This document shows, one piece after another, positions 1,448-36,002 of a stretch of 64,000 bases of DNA; position 1 is the first letter of the stretch; each line of letters begins with the position of its first letter. The notes below the pieces were generated by a model. The model had not been told where the DNA came from and ran no database searches. It saw only the letters and a list, made by a program, of their open reading frames with translations. The translations under genes were made by a program, and so were the position numbers. This DNA comes from Shigella phage SP18, in the sequence record GQ981382; one strand, 5' to 3'.

Positions 1448-1603
1448 AATAAAATTATTGAAATGAACCCGTCAGGAGTGGAAAAGAATCCTATCCAACA
1501 AGCTCGTGTGAATGTATAGAATGCCATGAATAGCACGACATATCCTAAAAATAATTCCATATGTTCTCCTCAGTTGGTTCATTTTATCATCCCGAATATA
1601 AAG

Positions 1604-1628
1604 CAAAAAAGGAAGCACTAGGCTTCCT
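1604..1628 (-). terminator. Rho-independent terminator (minus sense)
   Basis: Hairpin ggaagc-actag-gcttcc; plus-strand A-run 1604-1610 gives U-run after stem in minus sense. Confidence 0.5.
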
Positions 1629-2696: not shown

Positions 2697-3219
2697 CTTC
2701 TTTATCTTTGGCGCTCTTATCAGACCCTGGCGCTTTAACTAAAGAGGATTCGTACTGTGTCATTTTGTCATAGATGTCCTGGATAAATGTTTCATCAGCC
2801 AGAGCCACCATATCGTCATCACGTGAATCGTATACGTTATGGACGAAGTAGCTATATTTCTTTGCCATTTCTTTACGTTCTTTTTTGATACGCTGAACGA
2901 AAGCATTGAAGCAAGCCATTGTTATGTAAGCATGTGGATTATCGTATTTTGTTTCGTCGAAGTTGTGAAGACCTTTTATTGCGGCCTCAATTCCGTCTGC
3001 TATCATTTCTTGCTTCCAGGATTGGGTATATCCGGAGAAGTTGAAACGTTTGCTAAGACCTTCGGCTATAAGCATAATCGCCAGACCAATAACATCGTTC
3101 TGGCGAATAATTTTGTTCGGGTCGGTGTTCGCATTCAGCTTCTGTTTCCACTCCGAAATAGCTTTCAAAAGCTCTTTATTATTTACATAGTTATTCTTGG
3201 TTAATTTAATTTCGTTCAT
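2662..3219 (-). CDS. 55: Late-transcription sigma factor gp55
   Basis: 185 aa; [45 protein letters not shown] and [20 protein letters not shown] match recalled T4 gp55. Confidence 0.93.
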
Positions 3220-3267
3220 ATCGCCTCACTTAGTATATGAATATTATATCATCCTTAATACAAAGCA

Positions 3268-3534
3268 TTAGCGAAGTAAACAGTACGCCTGAAAGACCTT
3301 CTCCATAATTGCCTTAAATTCATGGATGTCAATATAAGGGATAACCTCGGCATCACTAATGAATTCCATCAGACGGTCATGCTCGTTGCGGTATTGTCCT
3401 TCATTCAACATGCCGATATGGGACTCCCACGAGCCATACCCTTCTACGTGTGGGAAGAATGTTATTTTCATGAATTCATCCACCCAAAACGTTCCCAGGT
3501 CCTGGATGGATATCATTGTATGATTGATGTGCAT
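3268..3534 (-). CDS. Hypothetical protein (88 aa)
   Basis: ORF track; tightly packed co-directional early array. Confidence 0.45.
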   Translation of the reverse strand: MHINHTMISIQDLGTFWVDEFMKITFFPHVEGYGSWESHIGMLNEGQYRNEHDRLMEFISDAEVIPYIDIHEFKAIMEKVFQAYCLLR

Positions 3535-4047: not shown

Positions 4048-4370
4048 TTCGCACCCTTAATAATTTTCAGGTCAACAAAACCTTTCTTGCGCTGGGAATT
4101 CATACGCTTGATAGCTTTATCAGAAACTTCTTTGTTTTCACGCGGAAGCGGCAGACCAAACGCTACTACATCAAATTCATTCAGGATATACTGGACAAGG
4201 CTTTCACGAATACGCGCTTTACCCATTGTCTGACCTTCTGCAATAATCAACTTCTGTACATCGCCTTCCCACTGGTCCAGAATCTCAGGGGTAACGAAAC
4301 CAGATTTCATCAGAGTGTTAACTTTAGCAAATGCGAAATTAGTGATGATGTTAGTGATAGATGCAGTCAT
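4044..4370 (-). CDS. Hypothetical protein (108 aa)
   Basis: ORF track; hairpin-promoter cassette immediately upstream. Confidence 0.5.
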   Translation of the reverse strand: MTASITNIITNFAFAKVNTLMKSGFVTPEILDQWEGDVQKLIIAEGQTMGKARIRESLVQYILNEFDVVAFGLPLPRENKEVSDKAIKRMNSQRKKGFVDLKIIKGAK

Positions 4371-4403
4371 GATATATTCCTCAGTCTCATTAAATTAAAA
4401 TTT

Positions 4404-4440
4404 TATTATCCTAGGGTCATTATACCATGACCCCGTTGGT
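4404..4440 (-). promoter_or_regulatory. Early-promoter/stem-loop cassette (PeSL-like)
   Basis: Inverted repeat gggtcat/atgaccc whose loop carries minus-sense TATAAT; sits upstream of the 4370 start. Confidence 0.4.
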
Positions 4441-4442
4441 TT

Positions 4443-4688
4443 TTACTGCGCTTTAGCGCCTTTCCAGCCTTCGTACATCATTGCAACGGATAAAAGCAAT
4501 GCGCCTTCGCATGCAGCATACTTATTATTCCAAAACCAGTTCAGAAAAACTTCATCCTCAATGCCAGAGTGTTTCATGTTCTGGAAAAATTTGGCACGTT
4601 CTTCTGCAATACGTTGTGACAATTTAGATTGTGGATTCATTTTAAATTTTCCAGTTACCGTTTTCATCAATAAATTCAATCCAGTCAT
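4443..4688 (-). CDS. Hypothetical protein (81 aa)
   Basis: ORF track. Confidence 0.45.
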   Translation of the reverse strand: MTGLNLLMKTVTGKFKMNPQSKLSQRIAEERAKFFQNMKHSGIEDEVFLNWFWNNKYAACEGALLLSVAMMYEGWKGAKAQ

Positions 4689-5331: not shown

Positions 5332-5510
5332 AATTTAGGTCCTTTTGCAACTGTATTGAACAAGCTACGGTCACACACCATCAACGGAGCATCAGGCCAT
5401 TTCAAAGGACGATACCATACATCTTGGTCCGTCACTTTGGTTACTTGCACAGGATAGCCATTTACTGAATAATACTGGTCGGCTTTAATTTCTTTATCTT
5501 CAATAACCAT
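5328..5510 (-). CDS. Hypothetical small protein; ATG start at 5510 preferred over the TTG-initiated track start at 5588
   Basis: GAGGAAAACAAA-ATG ribosome site; the longer track ORF begins with TTG and runs through the upstream promoter cassette. Confidence 0.4.
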   Translation of the reverse strand: MVIEDKEIKADQYYSVNGYPVQVTKVTDQDVWYRPLKWPDAPLMVCDRSLFNTVAKGPKL

Positions 5511-5570
5511 TTTGTTTTCCTCATCAGTAGTTGATGGGATAATGATACACCGTTCAAAGGGGCTTGTACA
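5511..5570 (-). promoter_or_regulatory. Early-promoter/stem-loop cassette (PeSL-like) plus gggg/cccc hairpin
   Basis: Shared core ctcatcagtagttgatgggataat and hairpin aaaggggcttgtacacccctttt. Confidence 0.4.
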
Positions 5571-5577
5571 CCCCTTT

Positions 5578-5895
5578 TTAATCTTCAATTAAGTCCTGGT
5601 CATACCCCAGGGATATCAGTTTTGTTTTAAAGGCAGGAATATTTGTCATTTTTTCATCATTGACAAAAATCACTGGGTAACGAATGTTAAGGGTAGGATA
5701 TCCAGCACGCTTAGCCAAAGACACGATTAATGGCCTGTCATAAGCGATTTCAGAGCCTTGTTTGTTAAGGACTGAATAGAATGTATAAGGAAGGTTTAAG
5801 GAGCCCAGAAGGCTCCTGACGTGCATACAACCTGGGCATCGACCGACTTCTTCGGGGATACCATAGATTTCAATCTTAGTCGAGTTTTGGTCCAC
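5578..5895 (-). CDS. Glutaredoxin/thioredoxin-fold protein (NrdH-like)
   Basis: 105 aa; CPGC redox motif near N-terminus; lies just upstream of nrdG/nrdD as NrdH does in T4. Confidence 0.5.
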   Translation of the reverse strand: MDQNSTKIEIYGIPEEVGRCPGCMHVRSLLGSLNLPYTFYSVLNKQGSEIAYDRPLIVSLAKRAGYPTLNIRYPVIFVNDEKMTNIPAFKTKLISLGYDQDLIED

Positions 5896-6175: not shown

Positions 6176-6411
6176 TCTTTCACCTTCAGCATTTTTGCAA
6201 TGGTACTATGAATAGTCTGGATTCTTTTGTTGAATTCAGAGCTTTCGAGGCCAGGATTGGTGCTTAACCAACCGATAATAACAAACAGCAAACCAAACGG
6301 GATAGCCAGAATAAGCAGACAAACGATGAACAACACAAGCGTTATGTTTGCCAGAATATCTGCTGTAGCATTACGAAATTTATTCATATTTACCCTTAAT
6401 TGATTAACCAA
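6172..6411 (-). CDS. Small membrane protein (79 aa)
   Basis: Hydrophobic stretch LVLFIVCLLILAIPFGLLFVIIGWL. Confidence 0.45.
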   Translation of the reverse strand: MVNQLRVNMNKFRNATADILANITLVLFIVCLLILAIPFGLLFVIIGWLSTNPGLESSEFNKRIQTIHSTIAKMLKVKE

Positions 6412-6501
6412 GCATTGATAAACACTAAACTATACTGCGAATAAAATTCTGGACCAAAACGAAAAATCATATCATTTATAGTATCCATAATGTAATTCAA
6501 T

Positions 6502-6972
6502 TTAATCATGTTTCCACACCCCATCGGTATTTGACCAAAGTCGCTGATTATCTGACCCTCGCCACAGTTTTTTGGTCGGAAGATTTTTCTCATACTTCCC
6601 ATCAATAATAACATCAACATATTTAAGCATTTCTAGTTGTTTAATATCTTCAAACTTATATCCCGTCCACATCCAAATGCTTTTATTGGGATAAAGATTT
6701 TTAATAGTTTGAACCACAGAGTGAATAACATCTCGGTTATCAGGATAGAGAGGGTCTCCTCCGGTTATAGTTAATCCTTCTATATAATCATTATTCAAAC
6801 ATTCAATTAATTGTTCTAGTGTTTTACCAGTAAATGGAACACCATTTCTAGCATTCCATGTTGATTTATTATAACACCCTTCGCATTTATGCAAACAACC
6901 TGTAACGAAAAGAACGACCCTACAACCAGGGCCATTCACAAAATCACAAGGATAAATTCTATCATAATTCAT
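6502..6972 (-). CDS. nrdG: Anaerobic ribonucleotide reductase activating protein NrdG (radical SAM)
   Basis: 156 aa; CxxxCxxC-type cluster CLHKCEGCYN; directly downstream of nrdD. Confidence 0.88.
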   Translation of the reverse strand: MNYDRIYPCDFVNGPGCRVVLFVTGCLHKCEGCYNKSTWNARNGVPFTGKTLEQLIECLNNDYIEGLTITGGDPLYPDNRDVIHSVVQTIKNLYPNKSIWMWTGYKFEDIKQLEMLKYVDVIIDGKYEKNLPTKKLWRGSDNQRLWSNTDGVWKHD

Positions 6973-8786
6973 TGATGTTTAACCCTATGCATGATTTCTT
7001 TATTTTTGCCGAGATTAAATCCACGTTCGTTCGGATTCCCCAAATAGCCGCATGTTCTTCTTATTGTGTTCATCTTTTTAGGGTCAGTTTCTCCACAAAT
7101 AGAACAAACAAATCCGTTTTCAGTAGGAGTCATTTCATGGGTACTTCCACACGTAAAACATTTATCTACTGGCATATTAACACCAAAATAATCTAAATGT
7201 TGTGCAGCATAATCCCATACAGCCTCAAGACCTTTTAAGTTATTTTTCATATCAGGAAGTTCAACATAAGAAATGTGACCACCTGTTGCAATGAAATGAT
7301 ACGGTGCTTCGCGAGAAATCTTTTCAAACGGAGTAATATTTTCTTCTACTGAAACGTGGAAACTATTAGTGTACCAGCCTTTATCAGTAACATCTTTTAC
7401 ACTTCCATATTTTTCGGTATCAAGTTTACAGAAGCGATAGCACAGGTTTTCAGCAGGAGTAGAATACAAACTAAAAGCAAATCCGGTTCTTTCAGTCCAC
7501 TGCTTAAGACGAGCATTCATTTTAGTCAAAATTTCTTGTCCAATATCACGACCGACAAGAATATTCAATTCGTGAATACCAATGTATCCTAAGGACACTG
7601 AACTTCTACCGTTTTTAAATAACTCAATTATATCGTCATCGGGTTTAAGACGAACCCCGAATGCACCTTCTTGATAAAGAATAGGAGCAACAGTCGCTTT
7701 AACTCCTTTTAAGGAACTAATTCTACACATCAAAGCTTCAAAACATAAATCCATTCGCTCATTGAACAATTCAGTAAATTTCTGTTCATTGAACTGTGTT
7801 CCAATATAAGAATCTAATGCAATGCGAGGAAGATTCAGTGTTACAACACCAAGATTATTACGTCCATCAAGAATTTCATTACCAGTCGAATCTTTCCATA
7901 CGCCCAAGAAACTACGACAACCCATTGGAGAAACAGGAATAGATGAACCAGTGATAGCTTTGTTATTCTTAGCTGAAATGATATCAGGATACATTCTTTT
8001 GCTTGCACACTCTAAAGCAAGCTGCTTAATATCATAGTTTGGGTCGTCTTTATAAAGATTAACACCTTCTTCAACGAACATAACAAGTTTAGGGAAAATA
8101 GGAGTTATCCCATCACGACCAAGACCTTTAATACGATTTTTCAGAATTGCTTTCTGAATCATTCGTTCGGTCCAGTCAGTTCCGGTACCAAATGTAATTG
8201 TCACAAAAGGAGTCTGACCATTTGAGCTAAAGAGAGTATTTACTTCATATTCATAAGCTTGGAATGCATCGTATACGTCTTTTTCTGTTTTAGATTGGGC
8301 ATAATTCAACGCATCAGTGATTTGCCATTTTTCCGCGTCCTCAATATGTTTCGCATAGGTACGTTTAACATAAGGAGAAAGTACTTTATCTACATTCGCA
8401 AAAGTCGTTCCGCCATATTGATGGGAAGCAACCTGCGCAGTAATTTGTGCCATAATTGCAGTAGCAACACTGATTGATTTAGGAGTTTCAATCTGTGCAT
8501 TACCGAGTTTAAATCCGTTCTCAAGCATTCCTTTTAAATCTACTAAACAGCAATTAGTAAATGGAAGAGCAGGGGAATAATCAATATCATGGAAATGAAT
8601 AATTCCGCTTTCATGTGCTTTCATAATAAAAGACGCGACCATATTTTTGGCAATATGTTTAGATACAATACCAGCCATAAGGTCACGTTGAGTTGGAAAA
8701 ACACGAGAATCTTTATTAGCATTCTCGTTTAAAAGGTCTTTATTAGTTTTATGAATCAATCCTTCAATTTCGTTTTCAATTGTCAT
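6969..8786 (-). CDS. nrdD: Anaerobic ribonucleoside-triphosphate reductase NrdD (class III)
   Basis: 605 aa, uninterrupted; C-terminal zinc ribbon CFTCGS...CSICG and glycyl-radical region RTCGYLG. Confidence 0.93.
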   Translation of the reverse strand: MTIENEIEGLIHKTNKDLLNENANKDSRVFPTQRDLMAGIVSKHIAKNMVASFIMKAHESGIIHFHDIDYSPALPFTNCCLVDLKGMLENGFKLGNAQIETPKSISVATAIMAQITAQVASHQYGGTTFANVDKVLSPYVKRTYAKHIEDAEKWQITDALNYAQSKTEKDVYDAFQAYEYEVNTLFSSNGQTPFVTITFGTGTDWTERMIQKAILKNRIKGLGRDGITPIFPKLVMFVEEGVNLYKDDPNYDIKQLALECASKRMYPDIISAKNNKAITGSSIPVSPMGCRSFLGVWKDSTGNEILDGRNNLGVVTLNLPRIALDSYIGTQFNEQKFTELFNERMDLCFEALMCRISSLKGVKATVAPILYQEGAFGVRLKPDDDIIELFKNGRSSVSLGYIGIHELNILVGRDIGQEILTKMNARLKQWTERTGFAFSLYSTPAENLCYRFCKLDTEKYGSVKDVTDKGWYTNSFHVSVEENITPFEKISREAPYHFIATGGHISYVELPDMKNNLKGLEAVWDYAAQHLDYFGVNMPVDKCFTCGSTHEMTPTENGFVCSICGETDPKKMNTIRRTCGYLGNPNERGFNLGKNKEIMHRVKHQ

Positions 8787-11869: not shown

Positions 11870-12855
11870 TTCAGCAGCTCCAGAGCCTGTTCCAGTTTAT
11901 CCAGACGATTAGTTGATTCTTCCCAAAGTCGCTTGGCTTTGGTATAGTCTTCAGTTGCCTTTTTATTAACAGCAAGAGCTTCATTATACGCCGTTTCCAG
12001 GGCAACAATTTCAGGCGCTTTTTGTTTCACCGGCTCGTTGTTCAGATTATCAATCAGGTCTTCAAGGGTGGTTTCTTGTGGTGCATTCATAATTTCCTCA
12101 CTTTTCTTTTTATAAATTTCTGCAACAGTTGGTTGTTTTGCACATTTAACTTCGTGTAATGTCACCACAATTTTCCAACCTTTCCAACCATGAGCACTGG
12201 TGATAGGGTCTACTTTAATTTTTTCAACAGTGCGCATATAGTTAAGGGCACACTGCATCTGTGAAGTAAGCGTGCTCGCAGCATCAAGATACTTTTTGAC
12301 ATTTTCTGGAGTAGCTACTGGAGTAAAGAACTCATGCTTAACTGTAATAATTACCTGGTTTTCCCCAGACTCTTTAACCTTGACCATGTGCTCAGCCAAA
12401 TGGGAGATAGTGCGATAATCACCATCCATCAATTTTGTCGCTGATTTTATGATAGACATTTTGTTATCTCTGAATTCACGCGCCCAGCGATGGGCGAATT
12501 CAGAAACAGTATAGCCTTGTTTATCAAGGTAGTATTTTTCAACGTCACCAAACCAATGATAGCCAATTGTACCTTTGCCGCGGTTGGATTCAACACCAAA
12601 CTTATGAAGAAGGTCTTTATTAACCAGGTATGACAGGACTCGGGAACCTTTAAAAGTTTTCTTGATATCATCGTTACCTGCACGACTCGCAATAGTTGCA
12701 ATGTCTTTCTTGAAGCGACCAGATGCAACAATCGTCGAGTCAATCTGATTTAACCAGAAATTGATAATCGAAAGGATAGACAATTCACCTGTTAATGGTT
12801 TTACTTTTGCGTCGATAGTGGTGTTAAAGGCCTGGATATATTCGTTACGTGTCAT
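11866..12855 (-). CDS. Hypothetical protein (329 aa) with C-terminal coiled coil
   Basis: Long ORF; no recognisable catalytic motif; hairpin-promoter cassette upstream at 12861-12913. Confidence 0.55.
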   Translation of the reverse strand: MTRNEYIQAFNTTIDAKVKPLTGELSILSIINFWLNQIDSTIVASGRFKKDIATIASRAGNDDIKKTFKGSRVLSYLVNKDLLHKFGVESNRGKGTIGYHWFGDVEKYYLDKQGYTVSEFAHRWAREFRDNKMSIIKSATKLMDGDYRTISHLAEHMVKVKESGENQVIITVKHEFFTPVATPENVKKYLDAASTLTSQMQCALNYMRTVEKIKVDPITSAHGWKGWKIVVTLHEVKCAKQPTVAEIYKKKSEEIMNAPQETTLEDLIDNLNNEPVKQKAPEIVALETAYNEALAVNKKATEDYTKAKRLWEESTNRLDKLEQALELLK

Positions 12856-12913
12856 AGTGTTCTCCTCATAAAGTAGGAATTCATTATACTCCCTCCATCC
12901 TTGGAAGTAAACA

Positions 12914-13291
12914 TTATTTTAATGCTAAAATCGCCGCCTGCAATTTATTGCGTTGTGTTTCCATGTTCTTGATGCGATTCAGAACATCCTGGATACCCTT
13001 TTTCTCATCTTCAATCAGACCATTTAAGCGGTTGACTGATTCCTGGATAGCATCAGCATGATGTTTCTCAATAGGCTTCATTGATGGGTTAAAGATTCCA
13101 AGAGAGCTAGCCGGTTTGACTTTCCATTGGTACATATTTTTAACGTCCAGCGGTGAAATAGGCTGTGTTTTATATTGACCTGCAAATGCTGGACCATATG
13201 ATGCGGATGATGCGATAGGGGTACGTTCTGTCATTTCTGGTTCCTTTTTCTCCTGATAAGGAGCGTAAGACAAAAGATATTCTTTAGTCAA
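12914..13291 (-). CDS. Hypothetical protein (125 aa)
   Basis: ORF track. Confidence 0.45.
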   Translation of the reverse strand: MTKEYLLSYAPYQEKKEPEMTERTPIASSASYGPAFAGQYKTQPISPLDVKNMYQWKVKPASSLGIFNPSMKPIEKHHADAIQESVNRLNGLIEDEKKGIQDVLNRIKNMETQRNKLQAAILALK

Positions 13292-14013: not shown

Positions 14014-14859
14014 TTAATCCTTAAGAAGATTTAGGATATCGATATATTTCTGACGTTCAGCCTTGGCTTTAGCATTCAGACCGGAGAGTCGGAAAATCTC
14101 ATCATCTTGTTGTTGAATTGTAACATTCAAGCAAGTAAGCAAATTGCTAAAATACTCAATCTGGACTTGATGCTTCTCATTGCTTCGCACTGGAACAGGT
14201 TCCATTTTAGGAGCTTGTTCTGAAGAGTCTTCAGCCAGGTCTTTAATTTTATAAAGTTTAATACGCTGACCTGCTCCAGTTTCGGCATCACCAAAACTAA
14301 GAACACCGTGCTGTTCTAATTCAGACAAGGCCAATCGGAGATGGAACTTCCAGTTGTCGTATTGACATCCACTGTAATGGGAAATGGTATACTCATTTTC
14401 ATTTCTGGGGTGGTTAACAATACTAAAGATAATCCAATCACCCGAACCATTGGTCTTAAAGGTCATTTGTTTATCTTGACCTTTTGCAAGGCGAGCACCA
14501 AGAGCCAGTAAACGTCGTTGGTTGGCATGAAGGTCTTTAACCACTTCATCAAACGTCATGGTGCTAATCGCACGACCATAAAGGTCGTAACCTTTGTTAT
14601 AATTTTTAAGAATAATTCTGGCATTAGCACGAGACAACATACCTGTTTTACGAAGAGTTTTCATGACTCGGTCTTCTAACGTAAACGAACCTTTAGTCTT
14701 GTCAAAGATTTTAGTGAAGTCATTTTTAACAGTACAAACATTGAACTTGTCCCACATCATATATAGAACCTTTTCAACCACATCTTTAGTGCTTGGAATA
14801 CTGTTAAATTTAACAACTTTTTTAACTTCAGAACGAATTTCATTAATTGCTTGTGACAT
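14014..14859 (-). CDS. Hypothetical protein (281 aa)
   Basis: ORF track. Confidence 0.55.
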   Translation of the reverse strand: MSQAINEIRSEVKKVVKFNSIPSTKDVVEKVLYMMWDKFNVCTVKNDFTKIFDKTKGSFTLEDRVMKTLRKTGMLSRANARIILKNYNKGYDLYGRAISTMTFDEVVKDLHANQRRLLALGARLAKGQDKQMTFKTNGSGDWIIFSIVNHPRNENEYTISHYSGCQYDNWKFHLRLALSELEQHGVLSFGDAETGAGQRIKLYKIKDLAEDSSEQAPKMEPVPVRSNEKHQVQIEYFSNLLTCLNVTIQQQDDEIFRLSGLNAKAKAERQKYIDILNLLKD

Positions 14860-14922
14860 AATAATTTCCTCAATAGATTAATCAAAGGTCAGAACCATTA
14901 TACCATCCTTGGTATAAAGCGT

Positions 14923-15447
14923 TTATGCGAGAACCGTCTTTAAACGCTCTTCAAACTTCTGAAGGAGTACCTGGCGCTCTGCTCTTTGTTTGGTATAGGT
15001 TTCAATACGCTCTGAAGTGAGATTGTATTGTTCATTAACTGATTCCCTCATGAATTCAGGAATCTCTTTACACGCCTTGATTTCATTGAACTTATCAAGC
15101 ACCGCTTGTTGTTCAGCAATCAGACCATCATAATATTGGATATCTGATTTGATGTTTTGTACATCAGATTCAGTAGGCATATTTTTCTTTGCTCTTGTCG
15201 CTTGATATTCTGCATTAGTCTCTCTTGACCAGAACAAAGAACGGTTTTTGTTGGTGTTTTTATACACATCAACAATACCAACTGAATCAACAGTCACAAT
15301 CCAGTTCCAGGCGTTTTTATAAGTCTGACCACCTGATACTGTAATCTCACCTGCACAAGCAACATCATTAAAGAACTTACTTTGTGCTTCTGATTTAAAA
15401 TTACCATTATTGTAATTAATCAGATTAAAGATTGATTTGGCTTCCAT
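14923..15447 (-). CDS. Hypothetical protein (174 aa)
   Basis: ORF track; promoter cassette directly upstream. Confidence 0.5.
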   Translation of the reverse strand: MEAKSIFNLINYNNGNFKSEAQSKFFNDVACAGEITVSGGQTYKNAWNWIVTVDSVGIVDVYKNTNKNRSLFWSRETNAEYQATRAKKNMPTESDVQNIKSDIQYYDGLIAEQQAVLDKFNEIKACKEIPEFMRESVNEQYNLTSERIETYTKQRAERQVLLQKFEERLKTVLA

Positions 15448-15515
15448 TTTATTCTCCAGTATTTGGTAACTCAGTATGGGAACATTATACGTTTATCCCC
15501 ATACTATGTACACAT
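15448..15515 (-). promoter_or_regulatory. Early-promoter/stem-loop cassette (PeSL-like)
   Basis: tttattctcc...ggtaactcagtatgggaacattatacg...ccccatactatgtacac; near-identical copy at 16021-16092. Confidence 0.5.
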
Positions 15516-15818
15516 TTAATTAAAAGTTCTTTCAGTATTTTCACCGCTGAACCAGACGCTCTTAACGGCTTGCTGTGCGCGATGGAGCTGCTCTGCCATA
15601 TAAACACCAAGGGCCTCAGCTTTACGCGTCCTGTGGGCTTCTGCGGCGACCATTTGCAGCTTATCCATCATGATAAGAGCTTTACATTTCTCCTTCAGAG
15701 CATATCGCTTCTTCTCTTCTGGAGTTTTGACCATTCCTCTTAACTTGTGCATTTTCAGCTTAAAATGGTCAGCAGATTTCAGACATGCCTCAATCATGTC
15801 AAGTTCATACTTTTTCAT
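15516..15818 (-). CDS. Hypothetical protein (100 aa)
   Basis: ORF track. Confidence 0.45.
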   Translation of the reverse strand: MKKYELDMIEACLKSADHFKLKMHKLRGMVKTPEEKKRYALKEKCKALIMMDKLQMVAAEAHRTRKAEALGVYMAEQLHRAQQAVKSVWFSGENTERTFN

Positions 15819-15824
15819 AATTCC

Positions 15825-16019
15825 TCACTTGCGACGACGTTTTGGTAATGGCATTGCTTTACCTGCAGGGGTCAAAGTCACACGCAAAGCATTACCAATA
15901 CCAAGGGATGCTTTAACCAGACCTTTGGCTTTTAACTCACCAAATGCTTGACGTTGTTCAGGGTCACGAGTGTTAACCATCAGACCTTTTTCACCAGCAG
16001 CTTTGATTAATTCTAACAT
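15825..16019 (-). CDS. Hypothetical basic protein (64 aa)
   Basis: ORF track; promoter cassette directly upstream. Confidence 0.4.
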   Translation of the reverse strand: MLELIKAAGEKGLMVNTRDPEQRQAFGELKAKGLVKASLGIGNALRVTLTPAGKAMPLPKRRRK

Positions 16020-16020
16020 T

Positions 16021-16092
16021 TTATTCTCCGTTTGTTTATTTGGTAACTCAGTATGGGAACATTATACGTCTATCCCCATACTATGTACACTA
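16021..16092 (-). promoter_or_regulatory. Early-promoter/stem-loop cassette (PeSL-like)
   Basis: Repeat of the 15448-15515 element with minus-sense TATAAT in the hairpin loop and GGAGAATAAA before the ATG. Confidence 0.5.
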
Positions 16093-16320
16093 CTTTATAT
16101 AATTTTTAATATCAATCCTGCCCTGGTAGTGCTTGGCAGTTTCCTTCATCTTTTCTATGTCGATACCAACAATCACCTCACATGATTGACTTCCATGATG
16201 GCGTTTAAAATGTTCAATCGCTTCTTCTCGCGTTTGTTTGGATACGCGAGGTCTCATATGATTCATAATGGCTCCTTAGTAAAAATTCATTATGCATCAA
16301 CAGAGACAAGTTTGTACACC

Positions 16321-16350
16321 TTTAAAATAAAAAGGACCCCGAGGGGTCCT
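16321..16350 (-). terminator. Rho-independent terminator (minus sense)
   Basis: Hairpin aggacccc-gag-gggtcct followed in minus sense by a U-rich run. Confidence 0.55.
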
Positions 16351-16592
16351 TAGATTGCACTCCAAAAATTATGGAATCTTATAGTATTGATAGCCCAGTT
16401 AACAAACCTGCGAGTTTGCTTGGAAGTTGGTTTACATGTGTACTTGATATTGACCCGACGCCCAGTTTCCCGACAGACCGCTTCGAGATACCAGCGCCGA
16501 CCTTTATTGGGTCTTCCATATGATAAGAAGACCTTGATTTCCTGGTTATCGATAATAGGAATTGTGGTTGTCAAGATATACCTCTTCAACAA
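16350..16592 (-). CDS. Hypothetical basic protein (80 aa)
   Basis: ORF track; overlaps the 3' end of the nucleotidyltransferase ORF. Confidence 0.35.
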   Translation of the reverse strand: MLKRYILTTTIPIIDNQEIKVFLSYGRPNKGRRWYLEAVCRETGRRVNIKYTCKPTSKQTRRFVNWAINTIRFHNFWSAI

Positions 16593-19574: not shown

Positions 19575-19777
19575 TATTCCACCACATATGATAATGAGAA
19601 AATTGCTGATGAAAGATGGGTAGCATCTTCTTCACACAGTTCAAATGGAGCTTTCTGTAAGAGTTCAACCACTTCTTCATCAGTGGCACTGTCCATAAAG
19701 ATTGCATAATCATTAAGATAGATAACAACCTCATCACCAGTATTAACTGCATCAATCTTGATATTTTTAATTCTCAT
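19574..19777 (-). CDS. Hypothetical acidic protein (67 aa)
   Basis: ORF track; ATG at 19777 preceded by GAGGAGAACAC and a promoter cassette at 19781-19810. Confidence 0.45.
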   Translation of the reverse strand: MRIKNIKIDAVNTGDEVVIYLNDYAIFMDSATDEEVVELLQKAPFELCEEDATHLSSAIFSLSYVVE

Positions 19778-19839
19778 TGTGTTCTCCTCAGTAGTTGATG
19801 GGATAATAGTACACCCTTTTTATGGTGTTGTAAACCCCC

Positions 19840-19872
19840 TAAATGAAAAAAGGTCCACCCGAAGGCAGACCT
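19840..19872 (-). terminator. Hairpin terminator, possibly bidirectional
   Basis: aaaaaaggtccacccgaaggcagaccttttg; A-run on one side and T-run on the other. Confidence 0.4.
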
Positions 19873-19878
19873 TTTGAA

Positions 19879-22531: not shown

Positions 22532-22887
22532 TTAGAGTTCAATCCTCTATTATATGAATCCACTAACCTGTCAACCATACTGGTGCAGGCCGCCTTGTAT
22601 TTTGCACTTGATAGAATGCAATCCATTTCAAATAATTTCTTTTCATATTTGTTGGATAATACATTCTTTTTCAAAAGCGTATGTTCAACATCATTTTGAC
22701 CATCTTTATAGGCTGCGGTGAGCTTGGCACTGAACTGGATTATACAATCCACATTGCTTGCTGCGCAATAATCTTTAGCCGTCCTCGTTGCATATTCTAT
22801 GATGCTGTTGTTGTCGTCGCTCTGTACTGAAGCTATTCCTCCCATGCTGAATACTAACCCTATGACTAAAGTGATAACTCTTACCAT
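22528..22887 (-). CDS. Secreted/periplasmic hypothetical protein (119 aa)
   Basis: N-terminal signal-like VITLVIGLVFSMGGIASV. Confidence 0.45.
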   Translation of the reverse strand: MVRVITLVIGLVFSMGGIASVQSDDNNSIIEYATRTAKDYCAASNVDCIIQFSAKLTAAYKDGQNDVEHTLLKKNVLSNKYEKKLFEMDCILSSAKYKAACTSMVDRLVDSYNRGLNSK

Positions 22888-23442: not shown

Positions 23443-23901
23443 TTAGATATAAATCACTTTTGTGCTAATTTTTCCTTCCAGACGATTAGAGTTAACAAAC
23501 GCCATACGACAACACATGGTTGGAGACTTCCCAGGAATAGCTGGATTAACTGTCATTCCTAACCATAGGTTCTTGTCTGTGATTTCCAGACGAAGTGGAC
23601 GGTAGTTCACATTCGGGTCAATTTGTGCTTCAACTTCCGGGAGTGGTTTCATCTCCAGGAATTCAACGATTTCTTTTACATGTGGTGTGATTTTTCCAAA
23701 CAAGTCAAAAACATATTGTTCATCAATTTCACGTTGGATTGCACGGTCCAATAGGTGTGGACTGTACTTAATGAAGAATACTTCAAGGCCTGCTTCTTTA
23801 CAAGCCTTGTTGATAGCATTATTAATTTTGAGGAACTCCGTTTCAAAAATGCGACGAAGTTTATTGCGGCGAATGTAAACACTTGAATCGATAGTAGTCA
23901 T
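23443..23901 (-). CDS. regB: RegB site-specific endoribonuclease
   Basis: From internal Met: MTTIDSSVYIRRNKLRRIFETEF...YSPHLLDRAIQREIDEQYVFDLF...RLEITDKNLWLG...CCRMA matches recalled T4 RegB; GGAG ribosome site before ATG 23901. Confidence 0.85.
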   Translation of the reverse strand: MTTIDSSVYIRRNKLRRIFETEFLKINNAINKACKEAGLEVFFIKYSPHLLDRAIQREIDEQYVFDLFGKITPHVKEIVEFLEMKPLPEVEAQIDPNVNYRPLRLEITDKNLWLGMTVNPAIPGKSPTMCCRMAFVNSNRLEGKISTKVIYI

Positions 23902-23950
23902 GATTATCTCCTTTTGTTTGATGGGATAATCATAACTCATTTCAATCTGC
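23902..23950 (-). promoter_or_regulatory. Early-promoter cassette (PeSL-like) upstream of regB
   Basis: gtttgatgggataatcat...cttgtacactac shared core. Confidence 0.4.
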
Positions 23951-23957
23951 TTGTACA

Positions 23958-24537
<580 letters not shown>

Positions 24538-25569: not shown

Positions 25570-25730
25570 AATTGTCTCTTAGTTGGTGGGGCCGTTCCTT
25601 GGCACATAATTCATCCATGTATCCGTATGTAAACCCTTTACCGCACTTGGGCTCGACCTTATTACAGGTAGGGAAAGGTCCATCACTCAGAGGACGCGAC
25701 GTTCATGAGGAGAGGGCCGGCTTGCCTTTA

Positions 25731-26030
25731 TTAGAAAGAACCAGAGCCTTTAATTGTGTTCTGGCGACCTTTATTTTCTAATTCAGAATGGTCAATTTCA
25801 TATGCTTGTGCTACACCAAAAGCCTTTTTAACTTTAGCTAAAGAACCTTTAGATGTAACAATATTAAAAGTATTACCTTTGGTAAAATCAACCAAATCCA
25901 CTTGTACACCTTGTTTACCGAGGCTTGCGACAATAGCATCAACATATTGTTGGTCTAAATTGCCCTGGACTCCAATTTGGAATGCTTTAGGAGCTTTAGC
26001 TTCTGTGATAAATTCTTGATAAGTTTTCAT
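25731..26030 (-). CDS. Internal-protein-like capsid-targeted protein (MKTYQEFITE N-terminus)
   Basis: N-terminus MKTYQEFITEAK matches the T4 IPI/IPII/IPIII capsid targeting sequence with a protease-type ITE site. Confidence 0.7.
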   Translation of the reverse strand: MKTYQEFITEAKAPKAFQIGVQGNLDQQYVDAIVASLGKQGVQVDLVDFTKGNTFNIVTSKGSLAKVKKAFGVAQAYEIDHSELENKGRQNTIKGSGSF

Positions 26031-26038
26031 TTATTCTC

Positions 26039-26078
26039 TCCAAGTTGATGGGATAATTATGCACTATCCCATCAAAAA
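26039..26078 (-). promoter_or_regulatory. Early-promoter/stem-loop cassette (PeSL-like)
   Basis: 9-bp inverted repeat gatgggata/tatcccatc with minus-sense TATAAT-like loop. Confidence 0.45.
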
Positions 26079-26086
26079 GTAAACAG

Positions 26087-26350
26087 TTATGCTTTACCGC
26101 CAGAAACAATACCAAAGGTCTCAAAGTCCCATTCAATATCGTCAACATCAACTTTCTTACCAGCAACCACGAATGCGATTTCGCGACGTTTTGCATAGGT
26201 GACAATTTCTTTACCGTCACCACCAAAGAAAGAATAACCATTGCGCTTCATGGTGCCAAAGTCTTCAGCATCACCAGCAAACGCGCGGACTTTAAAGGAA
26301 CCGGCAGGAGCTTTAGTAGATTCAGTAATAAATTCTTGATAAGTTTTCAT
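26087..26350 (-). CDS. Internal-protein-like capsid-targeted protein
   Basis: N-terminus MKTYQEFITESTKA. Confidence 0.7.
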   Translation of the reverse strand: MKTYQEFITESTKAPAGSFKVRAFAGDAEDFGTMKRNGYSFFGGDGKEIVTYAKRREIAFVVAGKKVDVDDIEWDFETFGIVSGGKA

Positions 26351-26363: not shown

Positions 26364-26678
26364 TTACTCTTTAGGGAAATCGCGCAAAAACGCATCATAA
26401 AGTTTATTACCAATGCGACGGAATGCTTTTGCCGCATGAACGTTATCCGGATTTGCAATTTTAATTTGCATTACATGACTACCGGCCCATGATTTGGCTT
26501 CATCATAATAGCCTTTAATTTCTTTAATAGTCTTACGTTTTCCGCCAGGACCATCAACAGTAATTTTCCACGAACCGGTGCTTGTTTCACTTGGTGGGGT
26601 TAATTGTTCAATCCAGACATAACCGCCTTCAACACGTTTTTGGGTAGATTCAGTAATAAATTCTTGATAAGTTTTCAT
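26364..26678 (-). CDS. Internal-protein-like capsid-targeted protein
   Basis: Start moved to internal Met giving MKTYQEFITESTQ; conserved leader DNA cagtaataaattcttgataagttttcat. Confidence 0.65.
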   Translation of the reverse strand: MKTYQEFITESTQKRVEGGYVWIEQLTPPSETSTGSWKITVDGPGGKRKTIKEIKGYYDEAKSWAGSHVMQIKIANPDNVHAAKAFRRIGNKLYDAFLRDFPKE

Positions 26679-26726: not shown

Positions 26727-27143
26727 TTAAGCGTACACAGCTTTCCCATAGTATTTGTACCAGGTAGGCTTTTGAGAAATTTTCTCATTCAGTCTGGCTT
26801 GACTGATTTTAATTGACCAGATTGATGGTTGATAATCATTCTTCCATTCATCAGGAATATCATTTAAATCTTGGGTAGAAATATCTTTTATGTTAAACCC
26901 TCGCTTTAAACATTCCGCAATAAGTTCTTGATGACGGTTTTTAAGGAACAAAAGTTTATCATAAAAGAAGGTGACATGACCAGTCCCTAGAAGAAAAGAT
27001 GATGGGATTTTAAAGTCAGAAACCTTTTTACCATTTTGTACATGCTTACGAACAGCACCAAAAACGCGAGGAAGCTCACGATATTCAGCCATAAGATGTT
27101 GGTCAGCAAGTTCAGATACCAGAGTTAAATTAATGCGAGTCAT
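26727..27143 (-). CDS. denV: Endonuclease V (pyrimidine-dimer DNA glycosylase) DenV
   Basis: 138 aa; [35 protein letters not shown]...[13 protein letters not shown] nearly identical to recalled T4 DenV. Confidence 0.93.
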
Positions 27144-27150
27144 GTTTGTT

Positions 27151-27198
27151 CTCCGTAGTTGATAGGGTCATTATAACCCTACCATTTGGAGATGTACA
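27151..27198 (-). promoter_or_regulatory. Early-promoter/stem-loop cassette (PeSL-like) upstream of denV
   Basis: gtagttgatagggtcattataaccct...gatgtacactaat. Confidence 0.4.
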
Positions 27199-27687
27199 CT
27201 AATATGCGTCAAAAGTTCCAGTACGGAAAGTTTCGATAACTCGTTTGGCTCGGTTCGGAGTCTGGACTTTATACCATCTCGAGTCGGCCAGTTCCTTAGC
27301 GGCGGCTTCCCATGATTTAGCCTTCAGCAATCGCATACCCTTAGGAAAACCAGCAACACCAGCAACACCCATCTGGAATACCATATTAATGAGCGCACAC
27401 CGACGGACTTCATCCAGTACATCATAAACAGGTTTTAAGACAGGATGCCTCAAGATTCCAGCTTTAGCCTTTTCGACCGAACGGTTAAACAGTGTTTCAG
27501 CTTCGTGCTGGGTTATACGGCCATTACAGACACGACCCATGAGCTTGTCGAGCTCGGCACGAGCAACATCTTTTGATGGGTTCTTAGTTATCAGTTGCCC
27601 GATACCAATGGTCCAAAAGCCTTCGGTATCTTTATACAAATCCAACTTACAACCTTCATCTATGCGTAACATTTCGAATATATTCAT
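27199..27687 (-). CDS. e: Endolysin (T4 lysozyme e)
   Basis: 162 aa; [58 protein letters not shown] match recalled T4 lysozyme. Confidence 0.93.
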
Positions 27688-29678: not shown

Positions 29679-29903
29679 TCAGTATTCTTCATCATATTCA
29701 AAGTCTTCATCAAACTCGGGTTCCAGAGAAATTTCTTCTTCTGGGTGGAATTCACAAGGGAAATATTCCACTTCACCACAATCGGCGTCATAGGACTGGA
29801 AATCAATTTGGATTACGGTTTCGGATACAACAATAACTTCAGCAACCAAGTCACCTGCAATTTCCATTCCAACTTTAACATCTTTAGCTTTGATAGTATT
29901 CAT
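29679..29903 (-). CDS. Hypothetical acidic protein
   Basis: Start set at MNTIKAKDV Met preceded by GGAGAATAAA; promoter cassette upstream. Confidence 0.45.
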   Translation of the reverse strand: MNTIKAKDVKVGMEIAGDLVAEVIVVSETVIQIDFQSYDADCGEVEYFPCEFHPEEEISLEPEFDEDFEYDEEY

Positions 29904-29968
29904 TTTATTCTCCAATTTGGTAACTCAGTATGGAATCATTATGCACTGACTCCATACTGATGTACACA
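29904..29968 (-). promoter_or_regulatory. Early-promoter/stem-loop cassette (PeSL-like)
   Basis: ttttattctcc...ggtaactcagtatggaatcattatgcac...gatgtacacac. Confidence 0.45.
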
Positions 29969-29969
29969 C

Positions 29970-30929
29970 TTATTTTGTGAAAGGACGAATTAAATGTTGG
30001 TTAGCCTTAAAGCGTTTAACATAGTCTTCGCGCCCCAGGGTGTTGTACATATTAACCACTTCCTGGTAATGTTCCCAGGCATACTCACGGAACCATCCAG
30101 ACGTAATGGAGGTGCAGACTTTTTCCAGCGCAATATGGAAGCTCACAGATGGAGAGATATTGAACTCATTAGGAACCTGCGAACGCTCCAGAGCGAGCAC
30201 ACATGCTTCTTCATAAACCCCTGCCAGTTTAATAACATCAGGGAGCGCTTCAAATTTTTCACGCGAGGTCATGACTTCTGAATCATCCTTCATATAGAAC
30301 TTATATGCAGGCTTATCAGCAAGCGCCACGGCCTCGTGGATGGAGTCATGGTCAAGGGTATAGATTGTATCATTAAAGAAAGTTTTCTTGCCCACGTCTA
30401 GTTTAGGGTGACTGTATGACAGTGTTTCTGTCTGACGATGCAGCATGATTTTCTGCAGTTCATCATTAAGAACAATACCCTTATTGCGAAGGTAATTAAT
30501 ATGACTCATGGTCTTCAGGAAGAATGGATTGTTCTTCAGGTAACGATGAGACAATTTGATTGCCAAACAAATATCAGGGGTCGCCCAGTAAAAACCAGAT
30601 AGACGGTCTCTCTGAATATTTGCCTTCGCATATTTGAGCAGACGATAACTGGAGGTAAAATCTTCGTCTTGAAGCTCATCAGTCAACTCACGAACACTTG
30701 TCAGTGCGCGGACGATGTACGCTTCAAAATAGGTTTCTTTACCATTGTGCATACATTTAAAAGCTTGAACATCTGGGTTATCCACATGCACGTGCTGCCC
30801 CATCATCTGGGTTTTAAAACTGTTCCAAGAACCCTGGTCAGCGATAAAGTCCCAATCAGAGTTTTCAATTTTCTGACTTTCAATCAGACCAGCGTTATGT
30901 AATGCACGAGAACCAATAACTAACATCAT
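29970..30929 (-). CDS. Hypothetical protein (319 aa), possible nucleotidyltransferase-like N-terminus
   Basis: N-terminal VIGSRAL...SDWDF loosely resembles GS...DxD; otherwise unrecognised. Confidence 0.5.
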   Translation of the reverse strand: MMLVIGSRALHNAGLIESQKIENSDWDFIADQGSWNSFKTQMMGQHVHVDNPDVQAFKCMHNGKETYFEAYIVRALTSVRELTDELQDEDFTSSYRLLKYAKANIQRDRLSGFYWATPDICLAIKLSHRYLKNNPFFLKTMSHINYLRNKGIVLNDELQKIMLHRQTETLSYSHPKLDVGKKTFFNDTIYTLDHDSIHEAVALADKPAYKFYMKDDSEVMTSREKFEALPDVIKLAGVYEEACVLALERSQVPNEFNISPSVSFHIALEKVCTSITSGWFREYAWEHYQEVVNMYNTLGREDYVKRFKANQHLIRPFTK

Positions 30930-34503: not shown

Positions 34504-35097
34504 TTACTTAAGCGAATTGATATATTCTTCAATGTCAGCGGACGTGGTATCCACACCAACCTGTGGGCCTTTGAAGGTTTCAACACGCATCAGAGTGTCT
34601 TCAATATCAATCTTAGTCAATGCAGCGATTTCAACAACATCATCTGCGGTTGCAATACCCAGTGCAGACACCTTACGGGTTTCGCGGATGTATTCCAGTT
34701 TAACAGCTAGTTCCTGACGAGAGTCATCCAGCTCTTTAACTTTCAATTTAATTTCATTACGCATTTCAACATAATCATCTGCCTTCTTACGAAGTTGTTT
34801 AGCAGTGCGACGATACAGGAGACCCAGTTTAGCATGGACCTGGACATCTGCACCATCAGCAATCAGTTTTCGGATTTCACGCTCTTTTGAAGCGGCGAGC
34901 TGGTCTTTTTCATTCGCTAACTCGCGGATGCGTTTTTCTTCATTAACAGACTTAACGTGGGCAGTCTGGAGCTCAGTAATCTTATCAATCAGGGTAGAAG
35001 CAGCTTTAGTATATTGGTCTTCAATAGACAGGTTTTGCGCCATTGCAGTACCCAGTTTGGAGCGGATGAATTCAACAAGTTTCTTTAAAGTATTCAT
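34504..35097 (-). CDS. Coiled-coil protein (197 aa)
   Basis: Heptad-rich, Glu/Lys/Arg-rich sequence throughout. Confidence 0.5.
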
Positions 35098-35169
35098 GGT
35101 ATTTCCTTCAGTTAGTTAATGTTTTATTATCCCGGGAACATACTATCATGTTCCCGTTAAAGCACTAAT

Positions 35170-35475: not shown

Positions 35476-35556
35476 TTTATTCTCCAGTGTTTTATTGTGT
35501 AACTCAGTATGGAATCATTATGCCTTAAAGCAGGGGGCTTGTATACCCCCTTTTTG
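35476..35556 (-). promoter_or_regulatory. Early-promoter/stem-loop cassette (PeSL-like) with gggg/cccc hairpin
   Basis: ttttattctcc...gtaactcagtatggaatcattatgcc...cagggggcttgtataccccctttttg. Confidence 0.45.
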
Positions 35557-35558
35557 AA

Positions 35559-36002
35559 TTAAATTTCAAATTCTTTGCGGAAGTTGGAAGCATAAGACTG
35601 AACTGATGCTTTGTTGAATCCAAACTCACGCACAATCATATCAATAACAGCCCTACGAGCGGCACCATTAGACATATTGACAGTTTTGAACATATCATAG
35701 CATAAATCTTTGTTGCTCATACCGGAGCGTTTAGGTGTCTTACGTTCAGTTTTTGGTTCAGTCTTAGGAGTAGGTTTAACTTCTGGTTTAACCTGTCCAT
35801 CATTCAGACCTTTAAAAATTTTACCTGCCAGAGTTGCCAGTTTAGCAGCTTCGCCACGAGTGATACCAAATACTGCCGGGTTAAATGAAATACCTTCAGC
35901 TGTCAGACGTTTAAAGAACATACGTGCGGCGGATTGTGCTTCAGCTTCAGAAGAGTTGTTTAATGCCAGTTTAACATACTTAACCAGTTTTGAAGTTTTC
36001 AT
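35559..36002 (-). CDS. Hypothetical protein, paralog A with conserved C-terminal domain (...AARRAVIDMIV...VQSYASNFRK)
   Basis: Start at the MKTSKLVKY Met; C-terminal 50 aa closely similar to the 36086-36511 product. Confidence 0.55.
   Translation of the reverse strand: MKTSKLVKYVKLALNNSSEAEAQSAARMFFKRLTAEGISFNPAVFGITRGEAAKLATLAGKIFKGLNDGQVKPEVKPTPKTEPKTERKTPKRSGMSNKDLCYDMFKTVNMSNGAARRAVIDMIVREFGFNKASVQSYASNFRKEFEI

Follow-up and report, generated by a model that had tools for sequence, protein, structure and literature searches.

A family of putative promoter and stem-loop cassettes in the early region of Shigella phage SP18

In T4-type phages, short intergenic elements known as promoter-early-stem-loop cassettes (PeSLs) combine a sigma-70-like early promoter, preceded by an A/T-rich tract, with a stem-loop of variable position, for which five position classes are distinguished, and, at the 3' end, a Shine-Dalgarno (SD) sequence and a start codon; they sit in hyperplastic regions next to ORFans (PMC2839356, PMC4122927). 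In phages RB49 and phi1 the stem-loop is mostly found in the interval from the -35 to the -10 box or in overlap with the latter, and one such stem behaved as a strong terminator in a reporter (PMC2839356). Elements without a stem have been called degraded or '1/2' PeSLs (PMC2839356, PMC4122927). Here we analyse a stretch of 64,000 nucleotides from Shigella phage SP18 (record GQ981382; hereafter the window), and in particular a set of repeated intergenic cassettes on its minus strand that the original prediction, made from the sequence of the window, had identified with PeSLs.

The expression signals of T4 provide the second frame of reference. T4 early promoters are of the UP/-35/TGn/-10 type, and MotA-dependent middle promoters have, at a distance of 12 +/- 1 bp upstream of their -10 box, the MotA box (a/t)(a/t)TGCTT(t/c)a (PMC2988021). 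The early mRNAs of T4 have strong RegB/S1 cleavage sites, GGAGRAYARAA, in their SD regions (Durand et al. 2006, reviewed in PMC3014915). Set against these systems, the repeats of the window are very probably prereplicative expression cassettes of the PeSL class, which would act both as promoters and as recombination joints.

The repeat family and its promoter anatomy

The closest record to the window is that of phage 212, with 97% identity across 92% of a 25-kb query (megablast), and by its sequence the window belongs to the VR7/VR20 group of T4-type coliphages, genus Gaprivervirus. According to the annotation of relatives, the prereplicative region occupies the minus strand from about 1 to 43 kb, in the order 55.x, nrdG/nrdD, 49, nrdC.x, tk, vs, regB, internal proteins, denV, e and nudE, followed by e.x, tRNAs, more internal proteins, 57B, 57A, 1, 3, 2 and 4, and beyond this block the baseplate genes begin on the plus strand. 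The block is the hyperplastic early region that is classical for the T-even phages.

A profile built with nhmmer from 13 sites matched 17 places in the window at a cut-off of E<0.01, namely the 13 training sites and four more. All 17 are minus-strand sites within 5.5-39.5 kb (the nrdC-tk-vs-regB-ip-e-tRNA-57B region), and the plus-strand late region gave no match at this cut-off. Listing every minus-strand gap of at least 30 nt added an early cassette at 16264-16353 and MotA-type cassettes at 35095-35168, 3217-3270 and 1558-1620, all of which the profile had missed, and the final count was 23 cassettes, 19 of the early type and four of the MotA type. A modular element shared by 19 sites had been proposed. 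Indeed, at each of those sites a -10-like hexamer precedes a ribosome-binding site with start codon, a repeat family with a strand and region bias is directly observed, and the resemblance in the alignment extends beyond the ribosome-binding site. What did not survive were a universal inverted repeat, a conserved 10-mer and the placing of site 14881 among the early promoters, as this site has the sequence of a MotA-box middle promoter, CGCTTTA-N12-TATAAT.

Aligned on the -10 box, the consensus starts with an A/T-rich tract that often holds the stop codon of the upstream gene. There follow a -35 box, either (a)GTGTACA or GTTTACA, a spacer of 17 bp with TG (the TGn element) at its end in many cases, and a -10 box, TATAAT, CATAAT or TAYTAT, then a start region in two conserved versions, tATCCCATCAACTACTGAGGAG... 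or gTTCCCATACTGAGTTACCAAATA... (..TCCCAT..), and an SD, GGAGAATAAAATG. At the 3' end all cassettes have GGAG or GAGG and then an ATG 5-9 nt on. GTGTACA or GTTTACA, separated by 16-18 bp from a TATAAT-like hexamer and often accompanied by TGn, is present at 18-19 sites, the pattern expected of a sigma-70-like early promoter, and the MotA-box spacing expected of a middle promoter is present at four (motA and asiA lie outside the window). The repeats are highly likely to be early, and in a few cases middle, promoter cassettes. In the distal box that had been described as conserved, only the 7-mer core GTGTACA/GTTTACA is general, and it is the -35 box; there are four exact copies of the 10-mer GTAGTGTACA, and if one mismatch is allowed the count is six against 2.7 expected, which is not clearly above chance.

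The conserved leader of the original prediction was recovered in part, with GGAGAATAAAA exact at six sites (0.33 expected) and approximate elsewhere. GGAGAATAAAA fits 11 of the 11 positions of the strong RegB/S1 consensus GG*AGRAYARAA, and the six occurrences of GGAGRAYARAA in the window (again 0.33 expected) each fall at a cassette SD. The window also carries the gene of the nuclease:

23443-23901, minus strand: regB endoribonuclease gene, identified by orthology to annotated regB in relatives, with its function taken from PMC3014915

Judged by its sequence, the leader is more than a ribosome-binding site and coincides with a consensus RegB site. RegB is the presumed trans-acting partner of the GGAG leaders, and the window sequence taken together with the T4 literature suggests that the cassette may be read as 'fire early, then be cut by RegB'.

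A near-identical pair and gene exchange at the cassettes

The window was aligned to five sister phages (212, VR20, MN01, P896 and UPEC07), co-linear blocks were chained, and the block ends were clustered. Cassettes make up 5.4% of the region and contain 11 of the 44 breakpoint clusters (p=1.6e-5 under a uniform null). Modular gene shuffling, as had been proposed, is borne out by this enrichment and by four cassette-bounded events, comprising insertions, deletions and swaps, that could be resolved to the nucleotide and that have their junctions in the -35 box or the conserved leader. In all likelihood, then, the cassettes are recombination joints.

The first event concerns the following features.

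15445-15528, minus strand: early cassette 1, with -35 box GTGTACA at 15513-15507 and -10 box TATAAT at 15489-15484, the latter bracketed by the stem AGTATGGGGA/TTCCCATACT; SD GGAGAATAAAA at 15457-15447 and ATG at 15447
16017-16105, minus strand: early cassette 2, identical to cassette 1 at 53 of 54 nt from the -35 box to CCAAATA; -10 box at 16066-16061 and ATG at 16019
16090-16266, minus strand: ORFan of 58 amino acids (aa), carried by a module of about 225 bp, inserted with a cassette on either side
16264-16353, minus strand: early cassette absent from the original list, with a terminator hairpin GGACCCCtcgGGGTCC and T-run at 16351-16332, then GGTGTACA-N18-CATAAT, the -10 box being at 16294-16289

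Near-identity of cassettes 1 and 2 had been noted before and was confirmed: 15460-15513 and 16037-16090, 577 bp apart, agree on the minus strand at 53 of 54 nt, a match not seen in any of 100 shuffles, and beyond these 54 nt a short indel is followed by the common GGAGAATAAAATG. Cassette 1 would drive an NrdC.8-like gene of 174 aa, and the cassette at 16264-16353 would drive the 58-aa ORFan. The inserted module consists of a promoter spacer, a -10 box, an SD, the 58-aa open reading frame and a second -35 box, and its junctions lie at GTGTACA on one side and inside CCATACTGAGTTACCAAATA on the other. It is present in the window, in MN01 and in VR26 (the last by tblastn) and, by alignment, absent from 212, VR20 and UPEC07; P896 has the same breakpoint and the same stem-less cassette as the relatives without the module, and no 58-aa ORFan. 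At the position of cassette 2, the four aligned relatives without the insertion have a different, stem-less spacer and -10 box, and the cassette-1-like version is confined to the window, MN01 and VR26. Insertion of the module converted the downstream cassette into a copy of the cassette at 15513, and this is the origin of the near-identical pair.

Homologs of the 58-aa ORFan are found at 71% aa identity in unrelated Salmonella and E. coli phages of 45-48 kb. Its homolog in phi1/RB49 is ORF025 (52% aa identity), located between genes 43 and uvsX, and directly upstream of phi1 ORF025 there is TTGACA-N17-TATAAT with a stem CGGGT/ACCCG, that is, the architecture of a PeSL. Gene 43 is known to be flanked by PeSLs on both sides (PMC2839356).

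In the second event, a single chimeric cassette (36000-36088) of the window and 212 corresponds to two cassettes in VR20, MN01 and P896, with an additional gene enclosed by them, which is the excision/insertion picture drawn for PeSLs. The third, at 29901-29985, is a swap of alternative genes, each with its own spacer, stem, -10 box and leader, behind a common -35 box at which the crossover lies; the alternative gene, with the stem GTGGGAC/GTCCCAC, is carried by MN01, UPEC07, VR20 and phage 212. The fourth involves one of the MotA-type cassettes, which are:

35095-35168, minus strand: middle-type cassette of an e.6-like gene, with MotA box GTGCTTTA, N12 and -10 box TAGTAT (35145-35140), the -10 box lying in the loop of a 9-bp stem CGGGAACAT/ATGTTCCCG
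14857-14925, minus strand: middle-type cassette (site 14881), CGCTTTA-N12-TATAAT with the -10 box at 14902-14897, overlapped by a 7-bp stem TATACCA/TGGTATA
3217-3270, minus strand: middle-type promoter of gene 55, TGCTTTG-N12-TATAAT
1558-1620, minus strand: middle-type promoter, TGCTTTA-N12-TAAAAT, with a hairpin GGAAGC/GCTTCC and T-run before it

The e.6-like gene has the same stem, -10 box and leader in all six phages compared, and it stands behind either a MotA box or a sigma-70 -35 box. The MotA box forms the upstream half in the window, MN01 and UPEC07; in 212, VR20 and P896 the upstream half is a sigma-70 -35 box (TGTTTACA) preceded by an extra gene, and JS10 also has this -35 box.

Breakpoints were located in other cassettes as well. 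The denV cassette has a recurrent one at 27198-27205, at the -35 box, and the cassette at 26028-26100 has one at 26057, within the -10 box. The internal-protein genes that start at 26676-26678, 26028-26030 and 38464-38466 begin alike, with MKTYQEFI, and are otherwise unrelated. Several further breakpoint clusters are located just inside internal-protein genes, and breakpoints against relatives at about 26644 and 38437 fall just past this shared N-terminus, so that the conserved recombination block reaches about 30 nt into the internal-protein genes. The further proposal that the cassettes explain a patchwork of paralogs holds only as a weak link: the internal-protein genes share the N-terminal MKTYQEFI and nothing else, and one pair of cassette-driven genes has 42% identity over a 73-residue alignment. 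As a separate observation, MN01 and JS10 lack nrdG and nrdD (anaerobic ribonucleotide reductase), both of which the window has at 6502-8786, and the ends of this deletion (window 6388-8724) lie away from cassettes.

Stems within the cassettes

An inverted repeat had been expected at every site. It brackets or overlaps the -10 box in 12 of the 23 cassettes and does not do so in the rest, and the sites, labelled here by position, sort as follows.

Stem bracketing or overlapping the -10 box, with the hexamer in the loop (12 cassettes): 39495, 38522, 38188, 36073, 29976, 27199, 26090, 16090, 15513, 4442, 35150m and 14940m
Stem enclosing the -35 box (two): 35559 and 5571
Separate upstream terminator-like hairpin (three): 19835, 16318 and 1600m
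Leader hairpin (one): 31399
Stem absent or weak (five): the remaining sites, including 36603, 23958, 12912 and 26738

These classes are nearly mutually exclusive, in that there is usually one stem per cassette wherever it is placed, as would suit a function for which the place of the stem with respect to the promoter boxes does not matter. The stems around the -10 box are not random: at least 7 Watson-Crick bp across it were found in 10 of the 23 cassettes, compared with a mean of 0.53 and a maximum of 3 in 500 spacer shuffles, and 11 of the 23 cassettes reached z<-2 with RNAfold. The window has at least six arm sequences unrelated to one another (AGTATGGGGA, GATGGGATA, TAGGGT, GTGTAGG, GGGTCAT and CGGGAACAT), and relatives carry yet other stems at the same position (GTGGGAC, GGGACCA, GAGGACA). 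The e.6 promoter, the most telling single case, for which several genera could be compared, has the following stems.

Gaprivervirus: (C)GGGAACAT
Dhakavirus: GAGGACA
Mosigvirus: GAGAGCA
Kanagawavirus: GTGTAGGAG
Unclassified Klebsiella phage (Biddle_MM4): GTGTAGGAGA

Five genera thus have five different sequences, each with the -10 box in its loop, and in the JS10 stem RNAalifold identified two both-sided compensatory pairs; the e.6 promoter of T4 had no convincing stem. Stems that differ in sequence at a fixed position, together with the compensatory pairs of JS10, indicate that complementarity is under selection. A scan of viral contigs for orthologous promoters at the denV start returned six loci, all from close relatives, and was not used.

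Many stems contain G.T pairs, which are C.A mismatches on the other strand, and in 15 of the 23 cassettes the sense strand folds more stably than the antisense strand (Wilcoxon p=0.016). Stability that comes from G.U pairs on the sense strand, and the usual restriction to one stem per cassette, favour a role at the level of RNA over one in the mechanics of promoter DNA.

The remaining cassettes of the early type are listed below.

39432-39510, minus strand: cassette upstream of a 110-aa gene adjoining 57B, with GTAGTGTACA, -10 box TAATAT at 39471-39466 and stem GTGTAGG/CCTACAC across the -10 box
38464-38537, minus strand: cassette of an internal-protein gene (MKTYQEFI...), with stem GATGGGATA/TATCCCATC across the -10 box (38498-38493)
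38128-38203, minus strand: cassette with stem GATGGGATA/TATCCCATC across the -10 box (38164-38159) and SD GGAGAATAAAA; the downstream Trna.4-like gene is frameshifted
36509-36610, minus strand: cassette with GTAGTGTACA, -10 box CATAAT at 36568-36563 and the conserved GATTCCATACTGAGTTA leader kept; no stem
36000-36088, minus strand: cassette with stem (G)TGGGATA/TATCCCA(T) across the -10 box (36050-36045); chimeric relative to VR20, MN01 and P896
35473-35565, minus strand: cassette with stem AGGGGG/CCCCCT enclosing the -35 box (35551-35532), -10 box CATAAT at 35522-35517 and SD GGAGAATAAAA
31319-31414, minus strand: cassette with GTATACA, -10 box TACTAT at 31375-31370 and an 8-bp leader hairpin CTGATGAC/GTTATCAG before SD GGAGAATAAAA
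29901-29985, minus strand: cassette with an 11-bp stem AGTATGGAGTC/GATTCCATACT (one G.T pair) across the -10 box (29943-29938)
27141-27214, minus strand: cassette of denV, with stem (GG)TAGGGT/ACCCTA(TC) and the -10 box (27175-27170) in its loop
26676-26753, minus strand: cassette of an internal-protein gene, with -10 box at 26714-26709 and a weak stem of 5 bp
26028-26100, minus strand: cassette of an internal-protein gene, with stem TGATGGGATA/TATCCCATCA across the -10 box (26061-26056)
23899-23973, minus strand: cassette of regB, with GTAGTGTACA, -10 box TATGAT at 23934-23929 and SD GGAGATAATCATG; no stem
19775-19878, minus strand: cassette with an upstream intrinsic terminator at 19875-19848 (12-bp stem, CTTCGG loop, T-run), GTTTACA and -10 box TACTAT at 19811-19806
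12853-12927, minus strand: cassette with TGTTTAC and -10 box TATAAT at 12888-12883; no convincing stem
5508-5590, minus strand: cassette with stem AAAGGGG/CCCCTTT enclosing the -35 box GTGTACA (5577-5556) and -10 box TATCAT at 5547-5542
4368-4445, minus strand: weak member of the family, with no good -35 box, TGg-TATAAT at 4424-4419 and a 7-bp stem GGGTCAT/ATGACCC overlapping the -10 box

Several observations were made alongside. The stems that enclose a -35 box and the stem of site 4442 (plus strand 5556-5577, 35532-35551 and 4414-4433) read as good intrinsic terminators on the opposite strand, where the A-rich upstream tract of the promoter becomes the T-run, and they could halt antisense transcription entering the early region. 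The regB leader of JS10 (about 22700-22770) has a 10-bp stem TCTCCTGTAG/CTACAGGAGA with a 3' arm that includes the GGAG of the SD. This stem would hide the ribosome-binding and RegB site in read-through RNA; the regB cassette of the window has no such stem. A spacer motif, AAGGATG(G/A), stands right before the -10 box at 12883-12927, 14897-14925 and 3243-3270 (ccAAGGATGGagggagTATAAT, ccAAGGATGGTATAAT and ttAAGGATGATATAAT), two of these sites being of the MotA type.

Outside the cassettes, a non-coding stretch of about 350 nt at 36612-36960 (minus strand), between a small open reading frame adjoining the tRNA cluster and cassette 36603, showed strong folding on the minus strand only (z -3.2 and -3.8) and no Rfam match; in the whole window Rfam at its gathering score returned three tRNAs only. 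The stretch contains a sequence resembling a tRNA T-arm, CCGGGTTCGAATCCCGG, and ends in a terminator AGCCCC...GGGGCTTTTTTT, and we presume that it may encode small stable RNAs like rnaC and rnaD of T4. Behind cassette 38188, the Trna.4-like membrane-protein gene at 37944-38130 (minus strand) has one extra T in a T-run compared with phage 212, and its frame breaks after 21 codons, which makes it either a pseudogene or the product of a sequencing error. Lastly, an intergenic gap of 161 nt at 25570-25730, between an internal-protein gene and a Vs.8-like gene, has an unusually high G+C content of 50%, and it contains no cassette, nor did its two strands give a folding signal (z -0.3 and +0.9).

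Interpretation and comparison with known systems

If the repeats are PeSL-class cassettes, each would be a strong promoter for the host RNA polymerase with a short leader cut by RegB/S1, and in the minority where a MotA box takes the place of the -35 box it would be a middle promoter. Where a stem brackets the -10 box, a transcript that begins at the cassette itself would have its first nucleotide about 7 nt past that box, inside the 3' arm of the stem, so that the hairpin would form only in read-through RNA from the upstream gene. There it might attenuate transcription, direct processing or stabilise a 3' end, and small gene modules would be insulated from one another. The -35 box, the start region with the leader, and the SD would offer 10-50 bp of homology between otherwise unrelated neighbourhoods, and homologous recombination at these three blocks would insert, delete and swap modules, each of which brings part of a promoter.

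Any specific role for the hairpin is at best a tentative proposal. One version of it, which we regard as doubtful, is that the hairpin with the -10 box in its loop, constant in place but not in sequence at one promoter in at least five Tevenvirinae genera, is a signal in read-through RNA that works with the RegB site 15-30 nt downstream, the two halves of a cassette being exchangeable units. For example, the hairpin might cap the 3' end of the upstream message after the RegB cut, or read-through and promoter-proximal mRNAs might differ in their fate. If so, a swap of the upstream half would shift a gene from early timing (sigma-70 -35 box) to middle timing (MotA box) and leave -10 box, hairpin and leader untouched, and this half-swap pattern is what separates the e.6 promoters of the window, MN01 and UPEC07 from those of phage 212, VR20, P896 and JS10.

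Several results weigh against the interpretation as PeSL-class promoters and joints. A scan with a generic sigma-70 consensus gave no clear enrichment (60 against 58.6 expected, and 71 against 54.1), so that it is the particular repeat family, and where it lies, that speaks for promoters. Use of the promoters, their start sites, cleavage by RegB and any effect of the stems are all read from the sequence of this phage. None of the 12 stems bracketing the -10 box is followed by a U-run, so they are not canonical intrinsic terminators; the suggestion that these stems terminate the upstream gene thus finds no support in the sequence, and only the separate upstream stems (19875-19848, 16351-16332 and the one before 1600m) have the features of intrinsic terminators. 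Four to five cassettes have no stem at all. The copies are not independent, as the GATGGGATA and AGTATGG families recur, and the stem statistics therefore have an effective sample size below 23. As for recombination, 33 of the 44 breakpoint clusters lie outside cassettes, and against a stricter null restricted to gene boundaries the enrichment is modest (p=0.027).

The breakpoint figures, and the stem-less sites here and at T4 e.6, would also suit an explanation that we consider quite unlikely, namely that early promoters and leaders are alike through recognition by RNA polymerase, ribosome and RegB, that recombination at them is incidental, since only intergenic breakpoints survive selection, and that the stems have no function. 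Stems are, however, about 20 times commoner than in shuffles, and from locus to locus and genus to genus other complementary sequences take their place at a fixed position, with changes on both sides among them. Moreover, the junctions of the four resolved events map to the conserved blocks and not merely to intergenic DNA.

That the loop contains the -10 box, both at 12 cassettes and in five genera, raises the question whether the inverted repeat acts instead as a DNA hairpin or cruciform, either as a switch that exposes or hides the -10 box, occlusion having been proposed by the original prediction, or as a target of endonuclease VII, which the phage encodes (gene 49), to start recombination. 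This is highly improbable in our view, as the G.T pairs make a two-sided cruciform weaker than the sense hairpin, and stems placed at the -35 box, upstream or in the leader speak for a role that does not depend on promoter position. The loops of the cassette stems also measure 5-13 nt, and loops of this size disfavour cruciform extrusion. Operators of a dimeric DNA-binding protein that shuts off early promoters would have the classical repressor geometry of a palindrome centred on the -10 box, and how T4 early promoters are shut off has been explained only in part (PMC3014915), but we discarded this scarcely credible idea because arms differ wholly between cassettes and between orthologous promoters of different genera, their spacing varies from 3 to 13 nt, and G.T pairs break the DNA palindrome. 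A transposon or miniature inverted-repeat transposable element (MITE) was likewise discarded, there being no terminal repeats, target duplications or transposase, and the cassettes having a fixed place before a gene.

Taken as PeSL-class cassettes, the repeats do not overturn current understanding. To the few T-even lineages examined for PeSLs they add a third that is well sampled, Gaprivervirus, for which Dhakavirus serves as outgroup, and they provide examples at nucleotide level of how accessory genes (internal proteins and ORFans common to unrelated phages) enter and leave a T4-type genome. The small additions are the RegB-consensus leader, the co-variation across genera of stems around the -10 box, and the exchange of a -35 box for a MotA box before the same gene, and they may help annotators to mark early promoters and likely recombination joints in phages that are candidates for therapy. 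In the open-access literature we found no link between PeSLs and VR7 or Gaprivervirus, an earlier description in the VR7 genome paper still being possible, and in PMC4122927 we found no swap of sigma-70 -35 and MotA box before one same gene.

The proposed identity with PeSLs is upheld by every sequence-level feature of the published definition, since promoter, stem, SD with ATG, intergenic early location and adjoining indels are all present. The PeSLs of RB49/phi1 (Arbiol et al. 2010, PMC2839356) are alike in their composite build, in the preference of the stem for the -10 box, in the neighbouring ORFans and in the indels between relatives. They belong to Krischvirus and have TTGACA as -35 box, whereas the Gaprivervirus window has GTGTACA/GTTTACA; their stems are often G-runs and C-runs, and those of the window are of mixed sequence. 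In RB49/phi1, promoter and terminator activity and mini-circles, which arise by exchange between neighbouring cassettes, were shown experimentally, whereas the cassettes of the window are known from sequence alone. The T4/PST PeSLs (Comeau et al. 2014, PMC4122927) come from the same subfamily, their consensus TTTACW-N17-TAYWAT is close to ours, and they lie, as in the window, near indels and internal-protein genes; their stems stand just upstream of the promoter, whereas those of the window mostly bracket the -10 box. The PmSLs, Mot-box versions from nt-1/KVP40 that the paper describes only in nt-1 (PMC4122927), resemble four sites of the window.

Likeness also extends to the separate parts. 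T4 early promoters (Hinton 2010, PMC2988021) have the A/T-rich tract, the GTTTAC-type -35 box, TGn, a near-consensus -10 box and a tandem layout in common with the cassettes, but that review names no stems as a promoter part, and the window prefers GTGTACA as -35 box. As at strong RegB/S1 sites (PMC3014915), GGAGAATAAAA lies in the translation initiation region of early genes in a phage with regB, the exact fit, by sequence, being limited to six cassettes. In the manner of Rho-independent terminators, the cassettes at 19775-19878 and 16264-16353 begin with a G+C-rich stem and T-run, in contrast to the -10 stems, which have no T-run. In summary, the cassettes are a good example of the PeSL kind already described, and their differences from the published sets are of degree.

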